From assembly GCF_048403405.1 (NCBI RefSeq), contig NZ_CP183129.1: a stretch of DNA of 64,000 nt; one strand, given 5' to 3'. Position numbers and translations under genes: made by a program. This stretch comes from Escherichia coli (GTDB lineage: Bacteria; Pseudomonadota; Gammaproteobacteria; Enterobacterales; Enterobacteriaceae). This document shows positions 1 through 49,121 of this stretch, in pieces (positions within the stretch are counted from its first letter, which is position 1; each line of letters opens with the position of its first letter). The notes under the pieces were generated by a model, which saw only the letters and a program-made list of their open reading frames with translations, made no database searches and was not told where the DNA came from.

Positions 1-885
1 ATTTGTCTTCGCTCGCCTCTACGGTACGGGTATCAGTCTGACGCGGCATCGGCGCAGGTGCCCACTCCACCAGACCATCCAGCATATGATCGACGCCGAA
101 GTTACCCAGCGCAGTACCAAAGAATACCGGAGTGATTTCGCCCGCAAGGAACAATTCTTTGTCGAACTCGTTAGACGCGCCTTTCACCAGCTCCAGTTCA
201 TCACGCAGCTGCTGCGCCAGATCTTCACCAACCGCAGCGTCGAGATCCGGGTTATTCAGCCCTTTAACAATACGGACTTCCTGAATGGTGTGGCCTTTAC
301 CGCTCTGATAAAGATAGGTTTCATCTTTATAAAGGTGGTAAACGCCTTTAAACAGCTTGCCGCAGCCAATCGGCCAGGTGATCGGTGCGCAGCCGATTTT
401 CAGCTCGTTCTCAACTTCATCGAGCAGTTCCATCGGGTCGCGGATATCACGGTCAAGTTTGTTCATAAAGGTGAGGATCGGCGTATCGCGCAGACGGGTA
501 ACTTCCATCAGCTTGCGGGTACGATCTTCAACACCTTTTGCGGCGTCGATAACCATCAGGCAGCAGTCCACCGCCGTCAGGGTACGATAGGTATCTTCCG
601 AGAAGTCTTCGTGCCCCGGGGTGTCGAGCAGGTTAACCAGGCAATCGTGATACGGAAACTGCATCACAGACGTAGTAATGGAGATCCCACGCTGCTTTTC
701 CATCTCCATCCAGTCCGACTTAGCGTGCTGGTTGGAACCACGGCCTTTTACTGTACCGGCGGTCTGAATGGCCTGTCCGAACAGCAGCACCTTCTCGGTG
801 ATGGTAGTCTTACCGGCGTCTGGGTGAGAAATAATTGCAAAGGTTCTTCTTTTCGCTACCTCTGCGGCCAAAAGGCTTGTCATAA
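1..885 (-). CDS. prfC: peptide chain release factor 3, partial (3' part runs off window start); first ~16 codons are prophage-derived
   Basis: Minus-strand translation from ATG at 883-885 gives [37 protein letters not shown]..., a GTPase G-domain matching RF3. Confidence 0.93.
822..835. repeat. att core copy (prfC-proximal junction), gggtgagaaataat
   Basis: Identical 14-mer at 49057..49070, about 20/23 identity over the extended repeat; encodes the AIISHP codons of prfC. Confidence 0.6.
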
Positions 886-1043
886 TTGTTGTCTCTTTGA
901 TTATGTACAATCATATGTACAAAGAAAAATTCATGCCGCTGATTGTACATTTTGGAGGTATCAGAGCATAGCAGAACATGATCAGTAGGTGTATTTGTAG
1001 CCAAAGAACATTTGTACATGCAGCAATCTTTGTTCCATTGACA

Positions 1044-1059
1044 CTGTTTATTCATACAG
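1044..1059 (+). promoter_or_regulatory. LexA (SOS) box 1, CTGT-N8-ACAG
   Basis: ctgtttattcatacag upstream of the dinI-like gene. Confidence 0.55.
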
Positions 1060-1071
1060 TTAAAAATAACA

Positions 1072-1087
1072 CTGTATACAAACACAG
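1072..1087 (+). promoter_or_regulatory. LexA (SOS) box 2, CTGT-N8-ACAG
   Basis: ctgtatacaaacacag, 16 bp upstream of the dinI-like start codon. Confidence 0.6.
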
Positions 1088-1102
1088 TGTAGAGGGATTT
1101 TT

Positions 1103-1351
1103 ATGCGTATTGAGATCTGCATAGCCAAAGAGAAAATGACTAAAATGCCAAACGGTGCTGTGGATGCGTTAAAGGAAGAATTAACTCGACGCATCAGTAA
1201 GCGTTATGACGATGTAGAGGTGATCGTAAAAGCCACCAGCAACGATGGCCTTTCTGTTACGCGCACCGCCGATAAAGATTCAGCTAAAACTTTTGTTCAG
1301 GAAACTCTGAAAGATACCTGGGAGTCTGCTGACGAGTGGTTTGTTCACTAA
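1103..1351 (+). CDS. DinI-family DNA-damage-inducible protein (prophage-encoded)
   Basis: 82 aa, MRIEI.IAK...[15 protein letters not shown] resembles E. coli DinI; RBS gaggga; SOS boxes upstream. Confidence 0.85.
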
Positions 1352-1420
1352 TTAACACGTAAAATCGGTAACGGCTGGAAATCATTCAATACTCGCACTA
1401 TCGGAAGTTCACCAGCCAAC

Positions 1421-1458
1421 CGCAGCACGTTCTTGCATACGACGTGTCTGCGGTTTTT
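1421..1458 (+). terminator. putative intrinsic terminator after dinI-like gene
   Basis: Imperfect hairpin cgcagcacg...cgtgtctgcg followed by a T-run. Confidence 0.4.
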
Positions 1459-1777
1459 CAACCATTCAGATACAGCACTCTCATCACATTCATTCTTCCG
1501 CATTAAAGTATATATGACCATATCACCTTAATATTTTTCTTCTTCAGATAAAAATTGTTATCTATGTATACTTTTAAACCGAATCCGTGTAGAGTCTCTA
1601 CCTAAGTTAGTTCACAGCTACCCCTTCAGTTTGCGCCATTAACTTCCTGACTTTTGCCGCTATCTGTAAGCATTCCTGTATACCTGAAACTACAGGGTTC
1701 ATCTACGAACTTTAAGAACACCCAGGATAAAAATTGTCAACTATATTATATATAACACCATACTAATTCGAGGCTAT

Positions 1778-1891
1778 ATGGACAGCATACTGATAATCAC
1801 TTCACTACTTATCATATTCAGCATTTTTAGTCATGCTCTAATAAAATTAGGGGTTGGCATATCCAATAACCCGGACAAAACCGATGTATAA
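1778..1891 (+). CDS. possible small hydrophobic peptide (37 aa)
   Basis: ATG with weak RBS; translation [37 protein letters not shown] has one predicted TM segment; AT-rich context. Confidence 0.25.
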
Positions 1892-1959
1892 GTCAACATA
1901 TCCTGAATCAGACATACAATATTGCAATGAAAACCAATAATATTTTAAGGAATATCTTC

Positions 1960-2193
1960 ATGAAATCAAATGACACCCTAAAGTGGTTCCCCGCGCAGCT
2001 TCCTGAAGTCAGAATTATCCTGGGAGATGCTGTCGTGGAAGTGGCAAAACAGGGAAGACCTATCAATACCAGAACATTGCTTGATTACATTGAAGGAAAC
2101 ATAAAGAAAAAGTCATGGCTGGATAACAAAGAATTATTACAAACAGCGATATCAGTTCTTAAAGACAACCAAAATTTAAATGGTAAAGTGTAA
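1960..2193 (+). CDS. YdfK/YnaE-like prophage cold-shock-associated protein
   Basis: 77 aa from MKSNDTLKWF...; lies next to a PinQ/PinR-like recombinase as in Qin/Rac. Confidence 0.6.
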   Translation: MKSNDTLKWFPAQLPEVRIILGDAVVEVAKQGRPINTRTLLDYIEGNIKKKSWLDNKELLQTAISVLKDNQNLNGKV

Positions 2194-2573
2194 TAAACAC
2201 CCCCTGAAAAATAATTTTTCAATGCATTAAAAAATATCAACAACTACGTTATTCCGCAACAACCTACTTTTTTTACCATTTTTCCACTTTAACAACTTTT
2301 TGCTCCACTTTTCCAAGACCAAACAAATTGAAATCTGGCTAAAACAACATACAACACTATTATTCGTCTTTCTCGAGTCCGCCCGGAGTTCGAAAAACAA
2401 ACCGAGTTAAAGCCATTTTTCAAAAAATCGATTTTAGGTTACACCAAAATTACGGGACTGCATCCAAATTTGTTTATTTTCGAACGTATACATACAAATA
2501 TGTGCAATAATAAGCGAAATAATTTTTGGATATGCATTATGATATGTACACCAATTTCGTATAGAGTCTCACT

Positions 2574-3164
2574 ATGTCTCGAATTTTTGCTTACTGTCGG
2601 ATATCAACTCTGGATCAGACCACCGAAAATCAACGCCGGGAAATCGAAAGTGCAGGCTTTAAAATCAAACCTCAGCAAATAATCGAAGAACACATTAGCG
2701 GCTCAGCAGCAACCAGTGAGCGTCCTGGTTTTAACCGGTTGCTTGCTCGCCTGAAATGTGGTGATCAATTGATTGTGACAAAACTGGATCGCCTTGGTTG
2801 TAATGCAATGGATATCAGGAAAACAGTGGAACAACTGACCGAAACAGGTATCAGAGTGCATTGCTTAGCATTGGGGGGCATTGACCTGACCAGTCCAACA
2901 GGAAAAATGATGATGCAAGTAATTTCAGCAGTCGCTGAATTTGAACGAGACCTTTTACTTGAACGCACTCATTCCGGGATAGTAAGAGCCCGGGGCGCAG
3001 GGAAACGTTTTGGTCGACCACCTGTGTTAAATGAAGAACAGAAACAGGTGGTATTCGAACGAATTAAGTCAGGTGTAAGTATAAGTGCCATTGCCCGGGA
3101 ATTCAAAACCTCGCGGCAAACCATTTTAAGAGCCAAAGCAAAACTTCAGACACCTGACATATAA
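2574..3164 (+). CDS. serine recombinase (PinQ/PinR-like resolvase/invertase family)
   Basis: 196 aa; N-terminal YCRISTLDQ catalytic-serine motif; C-terminal HTH. Confidence 0.85.
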
Positions 3165-3391
3165 AAAATAATCTCGGTGTGAGATGCTTTACGTCTTCCA
3201 AGCCCCCTTCCTTGCCGTAAATGGAAAGATACATCTAATTATAGAATTTATATGTTTTACCCTACGGCAGTGCTGGCCATTCAATATCCTGTGCAGTTGA
3301 CGTATCAACACGGTTCAGCAACACCCGATACTTTTTCCAGGCTTCCAGCAACGGGGTTTCTTCCTCCGTTGCATATACAGCTCACCTTTTT

Positions 3392-27228: not shown

Positions 27229-27748
27229 TCAGCAACCCCGGTATCAGTTCATCCAGCGCGGCTGCTTTGTTCATGGCTTTGATGATATCCCGTTTCAGGA
27301 AATCAACATGTCGGTTTTCCAGTTCCGGAAAACGCCGCTGCACCGACAGGGGGATCCCGTCGAGAATACTGGCAATTTCACCTGCGATCCGCGACAGCAC
27401 GAAAGTACAGAATGCGGTTTCCACCACTTCAGCGGAGTCTCTGGCATTTTTCAGCTCCTGTGCGTCGGCCTGCGCACGCGTAAGTCGATGGCGTTCGTAC
27501 TCAATAGTCCCTGGCTGGAGATCTGTCTCGCTGGCCTGCCGCAGTTCTTCAACTTCCCGGCGCAGCTTTTCGTTCTCAATTTCAGCATCCCTTTCGGCAT
27601 ACCATTTTATGACGGCGGCAGAGTCATAAAGCACCTCATTACCCTTGCCACCGCCTCGCAGAACGGGCATTCCCTGTTCCTGCCAGTTCTGAATGGTACG
27701 GATACTCGCACCGAAAATGTCAGCCAGCTGCTTTTTGTTGACTTCCAT
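27203..27748 (-). CDS. Nu1: terminase small subunit Nu1
   Basis: 181 aa, MEVNKKQLADIFGASIRTIQNWQEQGMP... Confidence 0.95.
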
Positions 27749-27925
27749 TGTTCATTCCACGGACAAAAACAGAGAAAGGAAACGACAGAGGCCAAAAAGC
27801 TCGCTTTCAGCACCTGTCGTTTCCTTTCTTTTCAGAGGGTATTTTAAATAAAAACATTAAGTTATGACGAAGAAGAACGGAAACGCCTTAAACCGGAAAA
27901 TTTTCATAAATAGCGAAAACCCGCG

Positions 27926-27937
27926 AGGTCGCCGCCC
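27926..27937 (-). other. cos site (cosN 12-nt cohesive end GGGCGGCGACCT on the minus strand), cosB region toward Nu1
   Basis: Plus-strand aggtcgccgccc, preceded by ...cgaaaacccgcg, matching the lambda left end in reverse complement. Confidence 0.85.
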
Positions 27938-28136
27938 CGTAACCTGTCGGATCGCCGGAAAGGACCCGAAAAATGATAATAATTATCATCTACATATCAC
28001 AACGTGCGTGTACGCCATCAAACCACGTCAAATAATCAATTATGACGCAGGTATCGTATTAATTGATCCGCATCAACTTAACGTAAAAACAACTTCAGAC
28101 AATACAAATCAGCAACACAGAATACGGGACAACCTC

Positions 28137-29660: not shown

Positions 29661-29931
29661 AATGTTACCGTAATATGTGAGTATCCATCGACTAGACACT
29701 AAGCAAAAAAGCTCCCGAAGGAGCCTTCATTTTCACTTTCTTAAATCTAACGACAGACGGCTAACATTTAAGTATTGTGAAATATTATCAAATGTAATCA
29801 TCATTGATTTACAAAAGATACATTTTGCCCCGAAAGGATTCCTGTCAGAAACATCAAAAGATGATGTTCTATACTGAGAACCATGGCAACACGGGCATCT
29901 AAAGTGAATATGGTTTGTAATATTTTCTACC

Positions 29932-30144
29932 TCAAAGTGCCACTACATGAACAGCCGCGGGGCCTTTAGGTCCGTTCTCAATACCAAATTCGACTTCCTG
30001 ATTCTCAGTTAACGTTTTGAAATCGTTGCTCTGAATAGCTGAGAAATGGACAAACACATCTTTGCTACCATCTTTCGGCGTGATGAAACCAAAACCTTTT
30101 TCAGGGTTAAACCATTTCACTAAACCAGTCATTTTGTTAGACAT
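29932..30144 (-). CDS. cold-shock protein (CspA family, CspI-like)
   Basis: [23 protein letters not shown]...; RNP motifs. Confidence 0.9.
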
Positions 30145-30508
30145 CATTATTACCTTTTGAAGAAGTTAGCCCTTGGGCAGAATGGTCCGAAAAAAAAATA
30201 TCAGAGAGAAAAACCAACAAGGAAATCTCAAGAGGTACAAATAATAAATTTATAACAATGACTGCTTCAGATAATTTTGTAACAAACCAGAACACCATTA
30301 ACGCATGATTAACCAACCATAGCAAGGATTACTTTTGTAAAGAAAAACACACGAATGAAACAATAGCTTTATTTATTAATAAAACGTGTCATTCTGTCTA
30401 ATGACCTTTTATCTTACCCTTAAGATTTCAAGGATTTTGACTCATGGAAGAGTCCTTTTTATTTAAATTTCACATTCAGCGCTAAAAATAATCCGATTTA
30501 ATATTAAT

Positions 30509-33097: not shown

Positions 33098-33381
33098 TTT
33101 AATATTGTGGTACTTTTTGTGGGAGTCATCCACTTACGCACTTTGTTTTGCTATGCCAGCAGTTAGCTTCTGCTGTAAAACTATTCATGCAGCAAACCTG
33201 CACTTCACCACAATGGTTAGCATACTTTTCCTGATTAAGTTATTGCCAAATATGCTGGCCATTGTTTCATGTATTGGACCTCCTTACTATTTATTAAAGA
33301 GATCCAATATTCACCACTCTGTCTGTATCTCCACTCAGGCATCAGCCTTCTTCGTTATCGTATACAGACAAACTATGAATT

Positions 33382-33597
33382 TTAATCAGTAATTATGACA
33401 TTTGCTGCTGCAGGACCTTTAGCACCACTCTCTACAGAGAAGGTAACCTTTTGACCTTCAAATAAGGTTCGATAATTATCATTCTGAATCGCAGAAAAAT
33501 GCACAAACACATCTTTACTACCATCAACAGGAGAAATAAAGCCAAAACCTTTATCAGCGTTAAACCATTTTACTAAACCAGTCATTTTATTTGACAT
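33382..33597 (-). CDS. cold-shock protein (CspB/CspI-like)
   Basis: 71 aa [23 protein letters not shown]... Confidence 0.9.
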
Positions 33598-33896
33598 TCT
33601 ACATTCCTTAACTTGAGCCTTTCGGCATAAATGGCTTGTATAACAGAAACGACTTCGTACTTAATTGGAGAGACTCAAAGAAGGAATAAGTGAATAACAC
33701 CTGAAATGAGAACTGCTTTAGTAAACTACTTCGTATATCGTCTGTTCTTCAAACCGACGCAATCATTAACGCATAGTTGAACATATGAAGCAATGTTTAT
33801 TTTAGACATCCAGCCATCTTCAACCCCATCAAAAAACTATAGCTTTCTTCAGGAACGTGTGTATAGTGCGCCAAGTTATCAGTATTAAGGAATTTT

Positions 33897-36294: not shown

Positions 36295-37122
36295 TCAATG
36301 AACGGTATCGAGCAGCTTTAACAGCTCAGGGAATCGGGATTCGAAGAAATGCGGCTGCGTCTCGCGCGGATTTGCAGGACTGGTGATGTTCTTGCCGAAC
36401 ATGCAGCCTTTCGCGGTCAGCGACCAGAATTTTTTGATGTTGTTAATCGCGGTACGACTGTATCGTTCGCGTTGTTCAACGATCCCCAGCTTCGCCATCT
36501 GGTGATATGCCTGATTAGCCGTCAGGCGGATACCATACTGCTTCAGCAGTGCACTCAGCGACAGCGTAGGGCGGCTTGAACCATCTGGCGCATCAGCAGG
36601 TGCATCAATGGCATAGATCGGCATAAGTTCAGGAAGACCAGCTACCTTTGATAATTTCTGGTATGCACCAAGTTTCGAGGAGTTTGACAGATTTAGAGTC
36701 TTTGCTGCTGATTCAAGCAGAATGACCCCGGATTTAATTTTGTCGGATGTGGTTTCTTCTGGTGATGAATTATGAAGCGCATCAAAAGTACGTATCACTT
36801 TTAAGCTGAATGCCGGGCTGATCCACATTGCATATGCATAGACCAGCTCTTTACAGACATACGTCCCACCATTGCGCCCCTGAATGGTGATGACAGGAAT
36901 ACTACGGGAATCTCCCGTAGTTTCTTCTTCCAATAATTCCACAAGAGCCTTCGTTTCAGGACGACGCATAAACTCGTGAACTTCCAGCGAACGGGAGGAG
37001 CGATTCTCACCAGCGGCAAGAAGAGCAGCTTTCTGAAGGTCGTTAAGACAGTAGTTAGATTCGAAGTACTGGCGCACAGAAACGCCATCAATTACAAGCA
37101 ACTGATTCATTGGTTTCTCCAC
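36295..37122 (-). CDS. KilA-N domain protein (antirepressor-like)
   Basis: 275 aa; N-terminal KilA-N-like region. Confidence 0.6.
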   Translation of the reverse strand: MEKPMNQLLVIDGVSVRQYFESNYCLNDLQKAALLAAGENRSSRSLEVHEFMRRPETKALVELLEEETTGDSRSIPVITIQGRNGGTYVCKELVYAYAMWISPAFSLKVIRTFDALHNSSPEETTSDKIKSGVILLESAAKTLNLSNSSKLGAYQKLSKVAGLPELMPIYAIDAPADAPDGSSRPTLSLSALLKQYGIRLTANQAYHQMAKLGIVEQRERYSRTAINNIKKFWSLTAKGCMFGKNITSPANPRETQPHFFESRFPELLKLLDTVH

Positions 37123-37272
37123 AAATTTTTATCCACGAGCGGGACTGCACTCCCTTTTCGTTGATGCAGGATGAACTTACTGCGATTTTTAATAGTTATC
37201 AAGGATACACTGTTCATAAATACAGTATCTTTAACGAGGTAATACCCAAATTTAGGGTGTTGCTCAATTCCG

Positions 37273-37668
37273 TTACCGAGTTGCTAATTTGCAACTCGCT
37301 TTTTCGTACTTACTGATAGTGATCTCGACCTTCCCCTCCGGGATAACCGGTCCCCACTCCACCAGCATTCTTTTCACCTGACTGTCGTCTTCCCACACAC
37401 CCGCGTGGGTCAGGGCGTCAAACAGCGCCTTGTTATAGTTGTCCAGATCGCGGATCCGGTTATCCGGAGGAAACAACACGATCTCCACTGAAGCAGGTGC
37501 CGACGTTGGTTTTGGCAGACGACGTAACTGCTCAACTATTGCTGCACACGCCGCGCTCTGGAATTTTCGCCCCGCCGCGCTTATCAGGCTCTTACCAGCA
37601 AACGCCCCTTTGTTGGGGTGTCGCCAGTACGTGTTCACGCTGGTCGGAAAAGGCAGGATCAGCTTCAT
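37273..37668 (-). CDS. rusA: Holliday junction resolvase RusA
   Basis: 131 aa; RDLDNYNKALFDALTHAGVWEDDSQV motif. Confidence 0.85.
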   Translation of the reverse strand: MKLILPFPTSVNTYWRHPNKGAFAGKSLISAAGRKFQSAACAAIVEQLRRLPKPTSAPASVEIVLFPPDNRIRDLDNYNKALFDALTHAGVWEDDSQVKRMLVEWGPVIPEGKVEITISKYEKASCKLATR

Positions 37669-37991
37669 ACTTTCAGGCCCCTCTCATGTAACCAGTGGGC
37701 TGCACGCAGCCTGGCGTTTTCCTCACCGGCAAGCAGTGAGCGGATAATCCCGACCGCCTCGCTGTCGTCGTCCTTCACCACGGTATGAAGCGTGATCCCC
37801 CGGGCCACACCACGCTTTATCGTGATGACGCCTTTTTTCTCCAGTGCGCGAAGATGCTCCACCGCTGCATTCACTGAACGGTATCCCAGCATGGTTGCCA
37901 CCTCCTGATTGGTTGGCGGGAAGCCACGTTCTTTCTGATAAGAAATCAGCATATCCAGCACCTGCTGCTGGCATTGAGTTAAAGTCGTCAT
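37665..37991 (-). CDS. LexA-type winged-helix DNA-binding protein (no peptidase domain)
   Basis: 108 aa; LTQCQQQVLDMLISYQKERGFPPTNQEVATMLGYRSVNAAVEHLRALEKKGVI. Confidence 0.6.
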   Translation of the reverse strand: MTTLTQCQQQVLDMLISYQKERGFPPTNQEVATMLGYRSVNAAVEHLRALEKKGVITIKRGVARGITLHTVVKDDDSEAVGIIRSLLAGEENARLRAAHWLHERGLKV

Positions 37992-39950: not shown

Positions 39951-40183
39951 GCTGCACCTCCGAGATGCTTCATGTTTTTTCCGGAGCAAAAGGCTATAAG
40001 CGGCATACTGATGCGGTAATTACGGCCCAGCGGTTCACAAATCACCTTCTGACATTCACGGTCAACCAGGCTAACACGTAGAACATGCCCTGCAGGCGTG
40101 GTGTACCACTGCCCAACTGTAGGAATTGATGTTTTTTTACGCTGAAGCAAACGGCAAATATTGAGGATCAACGGATTAAGCAT
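39947..40183 (-). CDS. hypothetical protein (78 aa), translationally coupled in the replication operon
   Basis: Overlaps neighbouring ORFs at both ends. Confidence 0.45.
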   Translation of the reverse strand: MLNPLILNICRLLQRKKTSIPTVGQWYTTPAGHVLRVSLVDRECQKVICEPLGRNYRISMPLIAFCSGKNMKHLGGAA

Positions 40184-41012
40184 GACGATGCCCTCCGCTG
40201 ATATTCAGGAGACGGTGAATATGAAAATTAGCCTTATCCGCCAGACGAATACGTTCAGCCTGCAAGTTAAGAAGGGTTTCTACCAAAACCTGATGCGCCT
40301 GCGGATCCGAAAGAGTTACCTTGCGCAGAGCACGTAGTGCAGTTGTTACATAACTGAGTTTATGTAAGTCTTCATCATTCAGACGAGTGAGGGCTGGGAC
40401 AGTAGCCATGATGGCAGCCTCCGATAACAGTGAATTACCTTCACCACCGGAAACGCCAATTTCGCTGGTGGTGAACTGAACGGGGTTGGCGTAACCGGCG
40501 TTATCGGAAACCGGCGCACCTTTCGGTGCCCCCGTCCAGCCCACCATAATTTGGGTGTGCACAGACGCAGACGATAAAAAAGACGCTGGCGCGTCATATA
40601 TCGCCGATAACATTTCCAGGACGCCAATCCCGTCACCCGCTTTATAAGGTGCCTGAACAGTGTAACGTCCCGGAATGGCAGAATCAATGTGCTGGTGGTC
40701 CTTCACACTCAACAAAATCACGCCTGAATTTCCACAAAGGACTAAAGCACTCATGCGGGTAGTCTTTGCGAAGATAGATAACGCGCTGTGTTTCTGGTTC
40801 CCAACGAATAACATGGACATAAAGCCCTCTTCCGTCACGAAACCAGCGGTTAAGTTCCCGCACAACTCGCCCCCCACAGTCAGGTAAAGTTCTCTGTGGT
40901 TACTTACAGCCAGGTAATTTGGTAATCTGCATTCATGCCGTAACAACAGGTGTTCAGCGACACTGACCACCAGCTGTTGCGACAAACGGTTATTTGCCGT
41001 TAAACTGTTCAT
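40176..41012 (-). CDS. hypothetical protein (278 aa), translationally coupled between the CII-like and O-like genes
   Basis: ATGA overlap with the upstream gene; no recognisable motif. Confidence 0.5.
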   Translation of the reverse strand: MNSLTANNRLSQQLVVSVAEHLLLRHECRLPNYLAVSNHRELYLTVGGELCGNLTAGFVTEEGFMSMLFVGNQKHSALSIFAKTTRMSALVLCGNSGVILLSVKDHQHIDSAIPGRYTVQAPYKAGDGIGVLEMLSAIYDAPASFLSSASVHTQIMVGWTGAPKGAPVSDNAGYANPVQFTTSEIGVSGGEGNSLLSEAAIMATVPALTRLNDEDLHKLSYVTTALRALRKVTLSDPQAHQVLVETLLNLQAERIRLADKANFHIHRLLNISGGHRHA

Positions 41013-41894: not shown

Positions 41895-42569
41895 ATGAAA
41901 ACAATCCATGACATCCGGCGGTCTAACGCCAGAAAACTGAGAGATGGTGTTGGCGGAAATTCATCCTTTGCCACCATGATTGATCGCGAGCCAACCCAAA
42001 CCAGCAGGTTTATGGGGGATGGCGCTACTAAAAATATCGGTGACAGCATGGCACGGCACATCGAAAAATGTTTCGACCTGCCTGTCGGATGGCTTGATCA
42101 AGAACACCAGACAACGAACATCACAAAAAAACCTGATGTTTCAATCACTAACAAACAAATAACGTTAGTCCCTGTCATATCATGGGTACAGGCCGGAGCA
42201 TGGAAAGAAGTTGGCTATTCTGAGGTTGATTTGAGCACAGCAGAAACGTATCCCTGCCCTGTACCCTGTGGCGAAATGACTTATATCTTGCGGGTGATTG
42301 GTGATTCAATGATTGATGAGTACCGCCCTGGAGACATGATTTTTGTTGATCCCGAAGTCCCTGCCTGCCACGGTGACGACGTTATTGCATTGATGCACGA
42401 TACAGGCGAAACCACCTTCAAGCGATTGATAGAAGATGGAACACAGCGTTATCTCAAAGCATTAAACCCAAACTGGCCTGAGCCTTACATTAAGATTAAC
42501 GGTAATTGCTCTATAATTGGTACAGTGATTTTCTCGGGAAAACCAAGAAGATACACAATAAAGGCCTAA
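41895..42569 (+). CDS. cI: CI-like repressor (HTH plus S24 LexA-like peptidase domain)
   Basis: 224 aa; Ala-Gly site in VQAGAW, Ser in GDSM, Lys in TFKRL. Confidence 0.9.
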   Translation: MKTIHDIRRSNARKLRDGVGGNSSFATMIDREPTQTSRFMGDGATKNIGDSMARHIEKCFDLPVGWLDQEHQTTNITKKPDVSITNKQITLVPVISWVQAGAWKEVGYSEVDLSTAETYPCPVPCGEMTYILRVIGDSMIDEYRPGDMIFVDPEVPACHGDDVIALMHDTGETTFKRLIEDGTQRYLKALNPNWPEPYIKINGNCSIIGTVIFSGKPRRYTIKA

Positions 42570-47602: not shown

Positions 47603-48826
47603 TCAGTTTGAATCAGAGATAGTACAATTAACAATCGATTCAACCCTCTTCCACCATGCCAGGTAAGCTTTACGCTGTTCTTCTAGATAATCGCTCTTAT
47701 CATAAACTTGCCATACCCCTGGCAGCTTATGACCAAGCATAATTTCTGCGATATGAGGCGCAGTAAGATCAGAAAAATTTGTTCGTGCTGTCCGTCTCAA
47801 GTCATGAAGAGACCAATGAGGGAATTGATATCCTAAACGCCGCCACGCGTACTGCATTAAATTGTAAGGCAGCGACTGTAATGATGTCCTACCGACTGGC
47901 TCCCTGCTTCCTTCCTTAGTAAAAAGCATATCGGAACCGTTGTTCATAGAGATAACGTATTTTATAAGCTCTTCAACCGGTTCAATAATGGGCCGCTTTA
48001 GCGGTTCGCCTGTTATGTCCCCTGTCTTATGTCGTTCAGGTGGTACAGTCCATACCTTATTTATGAAATCAAAATCACCCACCCTAGCAGTAATTAGCTC
48101 CGAACTACGGCAACCAAAATGCAGTAATAGTTTAATGAAGGCCCTGTATTTGGGAACCATTCTAGAGCCATCGATCGCAGCATAAAGAATTTTAATTTCA
48201 TCGTGTGTCAGAAACCGTTTCTTCTGACCTTTACGGATATCCATATCTTTACCCGTGATATCCGACAGCGGGCGAGTTTCAATAAGCTTTCTCTTATACG
48301 CCCAGACATGGGCCTGCTTTGCGTTAATTAGCAATCGGTCTGCTATTGCTGGAGTCTTAGTGCTAAGAGGCTCCAGGACTTCTAACCAATCATGCAATGT
48401 AGCTGCATCGTGAGGGATATTCCCGATTTTAGAGAACAGGTGCAGCTCAAACGAGCGGAGTATCTGTTCAGAACTCTTTTTATTTTTTACACAATATGCT
48501 TCATACCAGGCACGGATCACAGACTCTACCGTCATGGCTTCAGTAGCTTTTCGTTTTTCAGCCTGCTTGACCAATCGTGGATTACGGTTTGACTCGAGTT
48601 CACCACGGAGACGGATAACTTCTTCTCTGGCCTCTTTTAATCCAGTTGCCGGGTAAGTTCCGATATCAAGACGCTCACCTTTCCCTGCCCATTGATAACG
48701 ATATTGGAACACTACGCGACCTTTCGGTGATACTCTGACAGACAGACCATCACGATCGGATTTAACCAAAACCTTATCACGTTCCTTTCCAACGACTGAA
48801 CGCAACCACGCATCAGACAGCGCCAT
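47603..48826 (-). CDS. int: tyrosine integrase (P4-type)
   Basis: 407 aa; catalytic R (GCRSSEL), H-x-x-R (HDLRRT) and C-terminal Y. Confidence 0.95.
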   Translation of the reverse strand: MALSDAWLRSVVGKERDKVLVKSDRDGLSVRVSPKGRVVFQYRYQWAGKGERLDIGTYPATGLKEAREEVIRLRGELESNRNPRLVKQAEKRKATEAMTVESVIRAWYEAYCVKNKKSSEQILRSFELHLFSKIGNIPHDAATLHDWLEVLEPLSTKTPAIADRLLINAKQAHVWAYKRKLIETRPLSDITGKDMDIRKGQKKRFLTHDEIKILYAAIDGSRMVPKYRAFIKLLLHFGCRSSELITARVGDFDFINKVWTVPPERHKTGDITGEPLKRPIIEPVEELIKYVISMNNGSDMLFTKEGSREPVGRTSLQSLPYNLMQYAWRRLGYQFPHWSLHDLRRTARTNFSDLTAPHIAEIMLGHKLPGVWQVYDKSDYLEEQRKAYLAWWKRVESIVNCTISDSN

Positions 48827-49055
48827 TACTCACCTTGTACAAATCGCAAAACACCTCTGCTGCTTTGTACATTATGTACAAGCATATGTACAGATTTTTG
48901 ATGAAAGCAACCTGATCGATTTAAAGTTACATGAAAGAATTTTCAATTAAAGAAGCCACATAACCATATGTATTTAAATGAGTTATATAACCAGACCTCA
49001 ATTAACTGAAAGGATTTTGAAAGAGTAAAAGAGCTTTAATTTGGGATTAATTATT

Positions 49056-49121
49056 GGGGTGAGAAATAATGGCAAAAGTGCGGCGCTTCGCCACCTCTTG
49101 CAAATAAGGAGACAACGTCAT
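49056..49121 (-). pseudogene. prfC: orphaned original 5' end of prfC (first 22 codons, [22 protein letters not shown]), with its native upstream region to 49210
   Basis: Minus-strand ATG at 49119..49121; frame ends in phage DNA after about 24 codons. Confidence 0.7.
49057..49070. repeat. att core copy (integrase-proximal junction)
   Basis: Direct repeat of 822..835, 230 bp beyond the integrase start. Confidence 0.6.

Follow-up and report, generated by a model that had tools for sequence, protein, structure and literature searches.

A stand-alone dinI cassette behind tandem predicted LexA boxes at the edge of a lambdoid prophage in Escherichia coli

Plasmid PsiB and ImpC (impCAB operon) are mobile-element modulators of the coprotease activity of activated RecA (RecA*). 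The chromosomal DinI protein of E. coli stabilizes RecA filaments when present in stoichiometric amounts, and high levels of it inhibit recombination as well as UmuD cleavage (PMC6590174), and Hex of phage 434 is reported to prevent RecA-mediated repressor autocleavage (PMC3564112). Closest to the present subject are the dinI homologs of the prophages Gifsy-1, -2 and -3, which lie behind a LexA box and whose protein accumulates after mitomycin C treatment (Lemire et al., PMC3121763); in Salmonella treated with nalidixic acid they were upregulated 23-, 14- and 4.6-fold (PMC8072944). The C-terminal half of the Tum protein of coliphage 186 was also noted to be DinI-like (PMC3121763). The gene and its family are thus already known, as is the principle that prophage dinI genes can be LexA-controlled. 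Here we analyze a DinI-family gene of 82 amino acids (positions 1103-1351, plus strand) in a 64,000-nt stretch of an E. coli chromosome (NZ_CP183129.1), hereafter the window, where it stands behind two predicted LexA boxes near the left end of a lambdoid prophage and forms, with its own promoter and terminator, a small mobile cassette.

An earlier sequence-only reading of the window had placed two exact CTGT-N8-ACAG boxes directly upstream of this gene. Both are indeed there: predicted LexA box 1 (CTGTTTATTCATACAG, 1044-1059, plus strand) and predicted LexA box 2 (CTGTATACAAACACAG, 1072-1087, plus strand) are separated by 28 bp from centre to centre. The pattern occurs 6 times in the window against 0.67 occurrences expected, a number reached in none of 100 shuffled sequences. 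Each of the two 20-mers agrees with the LexA consensus TACTGTATATATATACAGTA in 15 of its 20 positions, as does the box of K-12 dinI. Three of the four other matches have G+C-rich spacers and agree with the consensus at only 11-12 of 20 positions, and therefore look like chance; the fourth, at 37210, is taken up below.

The boxes are closely interlaced with the strongest promoter candidate of the region, a near-consensus sigma-70 promoter. Its perfect -35 hexamer, TTGACA (1038-1043, plus strand), directly abuts box 1, so that box 1 constitutes the promoter spacer. The -10 element (1061-1067, plus strand) can be read either as TAAAAA with a 17-nt spacer, which is how the depositors of phage mEp460 annotated the same promoter (the LexA boxes are unannotated there), or as AAAAAT, ending at 1067, with an 18-nt spacer, which a promoter scan scored with 10 of 12 matches. 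Box 2 starts 5-6 nt past the -10 element and therefore covers the expected transcription start. A Shine-Dalgarno sequence, GAGGGA (1092-1097, plus strand), could be read 5 nt ahead of the ATG. The palindrome of box 2 extends to 22 nt (ACACTGTATACAAACACAGTGT, 1069-1090) and would form a 9-bp hairpin at the 5' terminus of the mRNA, ahead of the ribosome-binding site; a scan flagged the same palindrome as terminator-like on the opposite strand.

To follow the boxes through related phages, we compared the promoters of 58 related loci, which fall into 22 distinct haplotypes. The CTGT and ACAG tetrads are invariant among them, except for a CTGG in box 1 of two haplotypes, a variant that is found in some genuine LexA sites. 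Substitutions fall within the N8 spacers or in the DNA that separates the two boxes. Because the tetrads stay constant while spacers and inter-box DNA vary, we consider the boxes to be under selection. K-12 dinI and the Gifsy-type genes of 77 amino acids that were examined (Gifsy-1, mEp237, SEN34 and one Klebsiella phage) likewise have a box whose centre lies 23-29 nt ahead of the ATG, and this proximal box also precedes a Klebsiella phage copy of the 82-amino-acid type. An exception in the family is the dinI gene of Yersinia phage YeP3, for which no box was found within 160 nt of the ATG. Box 1, by comparison, is confined to the E. coli clade of 82-amino-acid proteins and is decaying in BP-4795, so that the tandem layout is one in which a single lineage has added a second operator to an ancestral one. 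The near-identical promoter of PhiR12_2 was considered as a further sign of selection and rejected: the first ~50 nt of the open reading frame (ORF) are near-identical as well, although the synonymous divergence (dS) of the coding sequence is 0.81, which marks a recombination joint.

The boxes therefore have the properties expected of members of the LexA regulon, in that they overlap the promoter and the start site and are conserved in homologous loci. LexA binding or damage induction has been reported for relatives of the cassette, namely the Gifsy dinI homologs (PMC3121763, PMC8072944), and, for binding, the chromosomal dinI of Klebsiella by chromatin immunoprecipitation. Judged from the sequence and these relatives, the cassette is very probably under LexA control.

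The assignment of the ORF to the DinI family, also made in the earlier reading, agrees with domain, structure and fold comparisons. The protein matches Pfam PF06183 over the whole profile (positions 1-63 of 63; E = 1.2e-19; 70.8 bits, the cut-off being 24.2) and PHROG 189, "RecA filament binding protein DinI" (E = 4.4e-31), where it aligns with the C-terminal half of the 151-position profile. It also matches the E. coli DinI structures 1GHH and 7YWA from end to end (E = 7.9e-13). The AlphaFold model (pLDDT 82) shows a strand-helix-helix-strand-strand-helix topology (E2-8, H9-13, H19-32, E39-45, E49-53, H58-76), including the long C-terminal helix of the DinI fold, and a Foldseek search with this model returned 7YWA and 1GHH as the sole significant matches (TM score 0.79-0.82, probability 1.00). 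Identity to K-12 DinI is 46-49%, and the score against the NCBIfam equivalog model NF007893 stays below its cut-off (72.5 versus 111 bits). We therefore regard the protein as a paralog and not an ortholog of chromosomal DinI; RefSeq labels it a "DinI-like family protein."

In the cryo-electron microscopy structure of the DinI-RecA complex, DinI residues L13, L21, W71, W77 and F78 form the pocket that receives RecA F203, while the acidic patch E24, E69 and D76 faces RecA K232, R243 and K245 (PMC9926225). The equivalent residues of the 82-amino-acid protein are M15, L23, W73, W79 and F80 in the pocket and E26, D71 and E78 in the patch, so that five of the eight contact positions are identical to E. 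coli DinI and three are conservatively replaced. Pairwise ratios of nonsynonymous to synonymous substitution rates (dN/dS) among diverged phage copies range from 0.08 to 0.23, which indicates purifying selection on the protein. Based on the contact residues and the predicted fold, the protein is likely to bind RecA.

Downstream of the gene, an intrinsic terminator (1418-1460, plus strand) consists of a 14-bp G+C-rich hairpin followed by UUUUU, with a folding z-score of -3.4 relative to shuffled sequence. No plausible ORF was found between the DinI stop codon and this terminator, including a hidden antirepressor ORF of the kind present in the Gifsy phages, and the next genes, ynaM and ydfK, are more than 400 bp away. 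A comparison of 80 related IMG/VR loci and complete E. coli genomes revealed that similarity begins at 1035-1038, at the -35 hexamer, and in most loci ends at 1420-1470, at the terminator, while at least five unrelated sequences occur upstream of the -35 hexamer. These are the prfC-type att arm with TGTACA repeats seen here, the 3' end of an integrase gene of the dusA type (mEp460 is an example), an arm of the BP-4795 type in which CCCCATTGATG is repeated, and two more unrelated sequences. Since a predicted promoter and terminator flank the gene and the boundaries of similarity coincide with them across unrelated contexts, the unit is, as far as can be read from these alignments, a moron: promoter, gene and terminator move as a block through the att-adjacent cargo region. 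The cassette is present in 1,804 of 5,426 complete E. coli genomes, at 3,386 places in total and at up to seven per genome. A small RNA encoded in the ~105-nt 3' untranslated region (UTR) of the cassette, as in the case of Klebsiella DinR, was considered and dropped, as this region is not conserved in diverged copies: in PhiR12_2, BP-4795 and the Klebsiella phage, homology stops at the stop codon. Rfam returned no match in the cassette region.

Annotations of the same gene in phage sequences go back to 2000-2007. Its product is 100% identical to gp30 of phage cdtI ("RecA filament binding protein DinI") and to its counterpart in phage 2H10, 96-99% identical to mEp460_021 of mEp460 ("DinI-like protein"), dinI of CP-1639 and H0001 of VT1-Sakai, and 94-96% identical to copies in dozens of Stx1- and Stx2-converting phages. 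Inducible phages with an identical or near-identical gene include cdtI, 2H10, mEp460 and VT1-Sakai, and Stx phages carry one as well. On the circular map of cdtI the order is int, attP, dinI and the cdt toxin genes.

The location of the gene at a prophage edge, as proposed from the sequence alone, was substantiated by a three-way alignment of the empty K-12 site with the left and right junctions. The 14-bp att core GGGTGAGAAATAAT is found at both ends, as attL at 825-838 within the 5' end of prfC and as attR at 49057-49070, beyond which lies the displaced original 5' end of prfC (neither core has a strand). The lambdoid prophage accordingly spans 839-49056 and sits in the first codons of prfC, and the ATG of the dinI gene is located 265 bp inside attL. 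The expectation that the resident repressor carries an S24 autocleavage domain was likewise correct. The CI-type repressor (41895-42569, plus strand) matches Peptidase_S24 (Pfam E = 1.5e-26) and contains the Ala100-Gly101 cleavage site together with Ser138 and Lys176 of the catalytic dyad. By analogy with E. coli DinI, it is plausible that the DinI copy tunes RecA-dependent cleavage of this CI; such an effect would not be specific to the window locus.

We propose that the cassette is an autonomous, SOS-inducible moron whose DinI paralog acts on activated RecA with a brake-type effect, and we give this reading a probability of about 0.5. As LexA biology and the Gifsy precedent suggest, LexA dimers on both operators would block RNA polymerase in the resting lysogen. 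Upon DNA damage, activated RecA would drive LexA self-cleavage and the cassette would be transcribed; because two operators must be vacated, expression would probably be tight and late. To judge from its conserved contacts and predicted fold, the protein would then sit in the filament groove of RecA on single-stranded DNA as E. coli DinI does, adding to the dose of host DinI, and more so in multicopy strains. The least certain step, taken by analogy with E. coli DinI, is that activated RecA would be stabilized and fast LexA cleavage would continue. The protein would at the same time compete with slow substrates that bind the groove, such as UmuD and S24-type phage repressors including the CI of the window prophage. 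As an outcome, SOS mutagenesis and prophage induction would have a higher damage threshold or a later timing. That the effect is a brake and not an accelerator is proposed only tentatively, from the analogy with E. coli DinI.

Several observations weigh against this proposal. Whether the protein brakes or accelerates is not derivable from sequence, and our literature search found no paper testing the function of a stand-alone dinI cassette. The boxes are 28 bp apart in most haplotypes and 29 bp apart in two, which makes phased cooperative LexA binding doubtful. Phages with repressors that escape cleavage (Gifsy type; 186/Tum type in CFT073) have conserved DinI homologs, too, so the role of the family cannot be specific to CI cleavage; together with the occurrence of the cassette in unrelated backbones, this argues for a general modulation of activated RecA and the SOS response. 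Finally, nonpolar dinI deletions in Gifsy-1 and Gifsy-3 did not significantly change the level or the rate of induction (PMC3121763). As the Gifsy repressors are not cleaved, this deletion test is not decisive for the window phage.

The same evidence bears on the other explanations. A phage DinI that stabilizes activated RecA could instead prolong LexA depletion and repressor cleavage, lock the cell in the SOS state and so promote induction. DinI stoichiometric with RecA is indeed a positive modulator that stabilizes filaments (PMC6590174; PMC9926225), and an accelerator would better explain why DinI genes are found beside LexA-controlled antirepressors (Gifsy, 186-type), where sustained LexA inactivation drives induction. 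DinI and lambda CI, however, occupy the same features of the RecA groove, so that competition is expected, high DinI inhibits UmuD cleavage, and the Gifsy deletions failed to lower induction; we therefore regard an accelerating role as unlikely. That lack of an induction phenotype fits a cargo gene for lysogenic conversion, in which the extra DinI would alter SOS outputs of the host (less UmuD' and mutagenesis, better recombinational repair or drug tolerance) with no meaningful effect on induction of its own phage. The moron architecture in the att-adjacent cargo region, the neighboring genes in other phages (cdt toxin genes in cdtI, effector-like genes in the dusA-integrating element) and reports that tie prophage DinI-like genes to drug-susceptibility status and to quinolone resistance acquired later all point in this direction. 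Those reports are correlative only, the host already possesses dinI, and any benefit of a higher dose is hypothetical. Cargo without effect on its own phage is thus a possible explanation, though we would not bet on it; it and the proposed brake are not mutually exclusive.

Two further explanations fare worse. Related phages pair DinI with an antirepressor, and here no second ORF follows the gene before the terminator, so that the cassette could be a functionless leftover of a LexA-controlled dinI-antirepressor operon (Gifsy/186 Tum type) from which the antirepressor was lost. The strong purifying selection on the coding sequence, the conservation of operators, promoter and RecA-contact residues and the occurrence of the cassette in many contexts and in one of every three E. 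coli genomes make such a remnant very improbable. The palindromes might also be no LexA operators at all but chance matches, integrase arm sites or CI operators, considering that they adjoin the att arm and that box 2 contains TGTATACA, which resembles the TGTACA motif of the arm. Two exact matches 28 bp apart are hard to reconcile with the chance expectation for 64 kb, and the proximal box is common to K-12 dinI and Gifsy dinI, which are experimentally LexA-controlled. Arm sites and CI operators were rejected because the boxes travel with the gene across different integrases, att arms and immunity regions. We consider a non-LexA identity of the boxes scarcely credible. The reading we prefer thus remains the SOS-inducible moron with a brake-type DinI paralog.

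Other parts of the prophage also appear to be connected to the SOS response. A further LexA-like box, TACTGTATTTATGAACAGTG (37210-37225, minus strand; 16 of 20 positions of the consensus), lies between rusA and a KilA-N gene (36295-37122), upstream of the latter. No consensus promoter was detected next to this box by a simple scan. The junction of rusA, box and KilA-N gene occurs in 185 of 5,426 E. coli genomes and in Shigella phage SfIV, and from its sequence the box may mark an SOS-controlled regulator or antirepressor. A short way upstream, a protein of 108 amino acids (37665-37991, minus strand) consists of a LexA DNA-binding domain (Pfam E = 1.7e-18) and a 40-amino-acid C-terminal tail, without an S24 cleavage domain. 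The alignment with LexA 4-69 matches position by position; the protein has a nearly identical recognition helix (SVNAAVEHLRALEKKG versus SPNAAEEHLKALARKG) and is annotated in mEp460 as "LexA DNA binding domain protein"; by sequence it could be an uncleavable LexA look-alike.

These elements, namely the S24-type CI, the DinI gene with its tandem operators, the box before the KilA-N gene and the protein with only a LexA DNA-binding domain, suggest a richer interplay between phage and SOS response. One could go further and regard the cassette as a node of a phage circuit that reads and rewrites the host SOS signal, a view we consider quite unlikely. In such a circuit, the DinI paralog would shape which substrates of activated RecA are cleaved early in the SOS response. 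After early lytic expression, LexA boxes, among them both boxes of the cassette, would be bound again by the uncleavable LexA surrogate, which would switch off SOS functions of the host while the phage grows. In multicopy strains, the cassettes would set in trans a threshold that the co-resident prophages share.

The surroundings of the cassette were also examined. Positions 1-883 (minus strand) of the window represent the 5' part of prfC (GTP_EFTU domain; RefSeq annotation), of which 839-883 is a substitute 5' end carried by the phage. The N terminus of RF3 in the lysogen differs from the original owing to this phage-supplied end (825-883), and the original prfC start was displaced to the right junction as a remnant (49057-49121). 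Because the phage replaces the 5' end of prfC, the prfC promoter in the lysogen must be phage DNA (884-1037), and it would be divergent from the dinI promoter. The substitute prfC end and four TGTACA motifs (at 904, 916, 944 and 1013) are parts of the phage P' arm (839-1037, no strand), a segment that is phage-specific, as homology with other dinI cassettes stops at ~1035-1038. Each att arm contains four TGTACA motifs (904-1018 and 48836-48892), and a near-repeat, ATTATGTACAA(T/G)CATATGTACA, is present once per arm (900-921 and 48871-48892). The motifs are probably arm-type binding sites of the integrase, whose gene is located at 47603-48826.

Downstream of the cassette (1778-3372) follow ynaM (37 amino acids), the cold-shock gene ydfK and a Pin-like serine invertase gene (2574-3164), then a truncated tail-fiber assembly gene (3262-3372) and tail-fiber genes; the segment 1778-3372 resembles the invertible tail-fiber end of Rac, Qin and e14-like elements. 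The remainder of the prophage comprises tail, head and lysis genes, Q, the nin region and replication genes on the minus strand as well as a divergent cI/cro pair; yjjG and rimI are located past the prophage. Its nearest sequenced phages are PhiR63_1 and 2H10 (genus Glaedevirus), with 97-98% identity over ~80% of the early half, and phage cdtI shares an att arm of the same prfC type together with the dinI gene. In E. coli MS 69-1 (NZ_CP146675.1; compared with window positions 18200-49000) the same prophage is now a remnant in which an IS1 past the tail genes has taken the place of the head and lysis genes, the early region and the greater part of int. At its prfC junction, the dinI cassette is intact and 100% identical.

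Two kinds of RNA elements were found elsewhere in the prophage. Two full-length cspA thermoregulator 5' UTRs (112 and 157 bits; 29886-30292 and 33319-33758, minus strand) lie in the late/lysis region as part of phage-borne cold-shock genes, which are annotated in 2H10, too. Rfam further detected a C4 antisense RNA (82.8 bits) and isrK (55.4 bits) at 40464-40652 (minus strand) in the ORF 40176-41012. This site is by or within an Ash-family ORF, between a cII-like gene and the replication genes, and resembles the c4-ant module of the P1/P7 type or the IsrK module of Gifsy-1, alongside a lambda-type CI.

We conclude that the cassette is a real, well-defined feature under selection, yet an ordinary and widespread one. 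About a third of complete E. coli genomes, including lysogens of Shiga-toxin and Cdt phages, carry one to seven extra SOS-type DinI genes. If the cassettes set induction thresholds, this would bear on the antibiotic-triggered release of Shiga toxin. A useful question is how multicopy phage DinI genes affect repressor cleavage, the induction thresholds of toxin phages and SOS mutagenesis. A search of the supplements of a ciprofloxacin transcriptome of enterohemorrhagic E. coli gave no entries for DinI-like paralogs, and its main text lists only chromosomal dinI. The gene c0943 of CFT073 (NC_004431.1), which was reported to be co-regulated with SOS genes, was rejected as expression evidence for the cassette because it belongs to a different locus of the 186/Tum type. 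In the extracted locus (27673-28105), a DinI gene of 77 amino acids follows an ORF of 62 amino acids just past the replication endonuclease of a P2-like prophage, which makes it a split locus of the 186 Tum type.

Compared with its closest relatives, the window cassette has the same two-box promoter and the same position by attP or int as the copies in sequenced phages. It differs from cdtI in its neighboring cargo, which is cdtCBA there and ynaM-ydfK-pin here, and the backbone may differ as well. With chromosomal DinI (b1061; 1GHH, 7YWA) the protein shares the fold, the length class and the RecA-contact positions, and both genes are monocistronic, with a LexA-type box and a terminator of their own. 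Chromosomal dinI, however, has one LexA box and a weaker promoter, whereas the window cassette has two boxes and a perfect -35 hexamer, is phage-borne and is sometimes present in multiple copies.

The dinI homologs of Gifsy-1, -2 and -3 (dinI-gfoA/gftA-irsA operon) are likewise prophage DinI paralogs behind a LexA box. Their products have 77 amino acids and are 40-45% identical to the window protein, and they have a single box. They are located in the nin region past a terminator and are co-transcribed with an antirepressor, whereas the window cassette stands alone by att; the Gifsy repressors are not cleaved, while the window CI is of the S24 type. With neither an antirepressor partner nor a repressor lacking the autocleavage domain, the window locus does not have the makeup of a LexA-controlled antirepressor operon. 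The tum locus of coliphage 186 and the split tum loci in PSP3, Fels-2 and the CFT073 prophage (c0943) resemble it as LexA-controlled phage loci with a DinI-like module, which in these P2-like phages is fused or adjacent to an antirepressor, a partner that the window cassette does not have. Hex, PsiB and ImpC are also borne by mobile elements and have RecA-dependent cleavage as their (proposed) target; Hex and PsiB are unrelated in sequence to the window protein, and Hex is expressed from P_RM in the lysogen, without SOS induction. Phage DinI modules therefore occur in three contexts: fused or adjacent to an antirepressor in P2-like phages, as the first gene of an antirepressor operon in Gifsy-type lambdoid phages, and as a stand-alone, att-adjacent gene as in the prophage described here.

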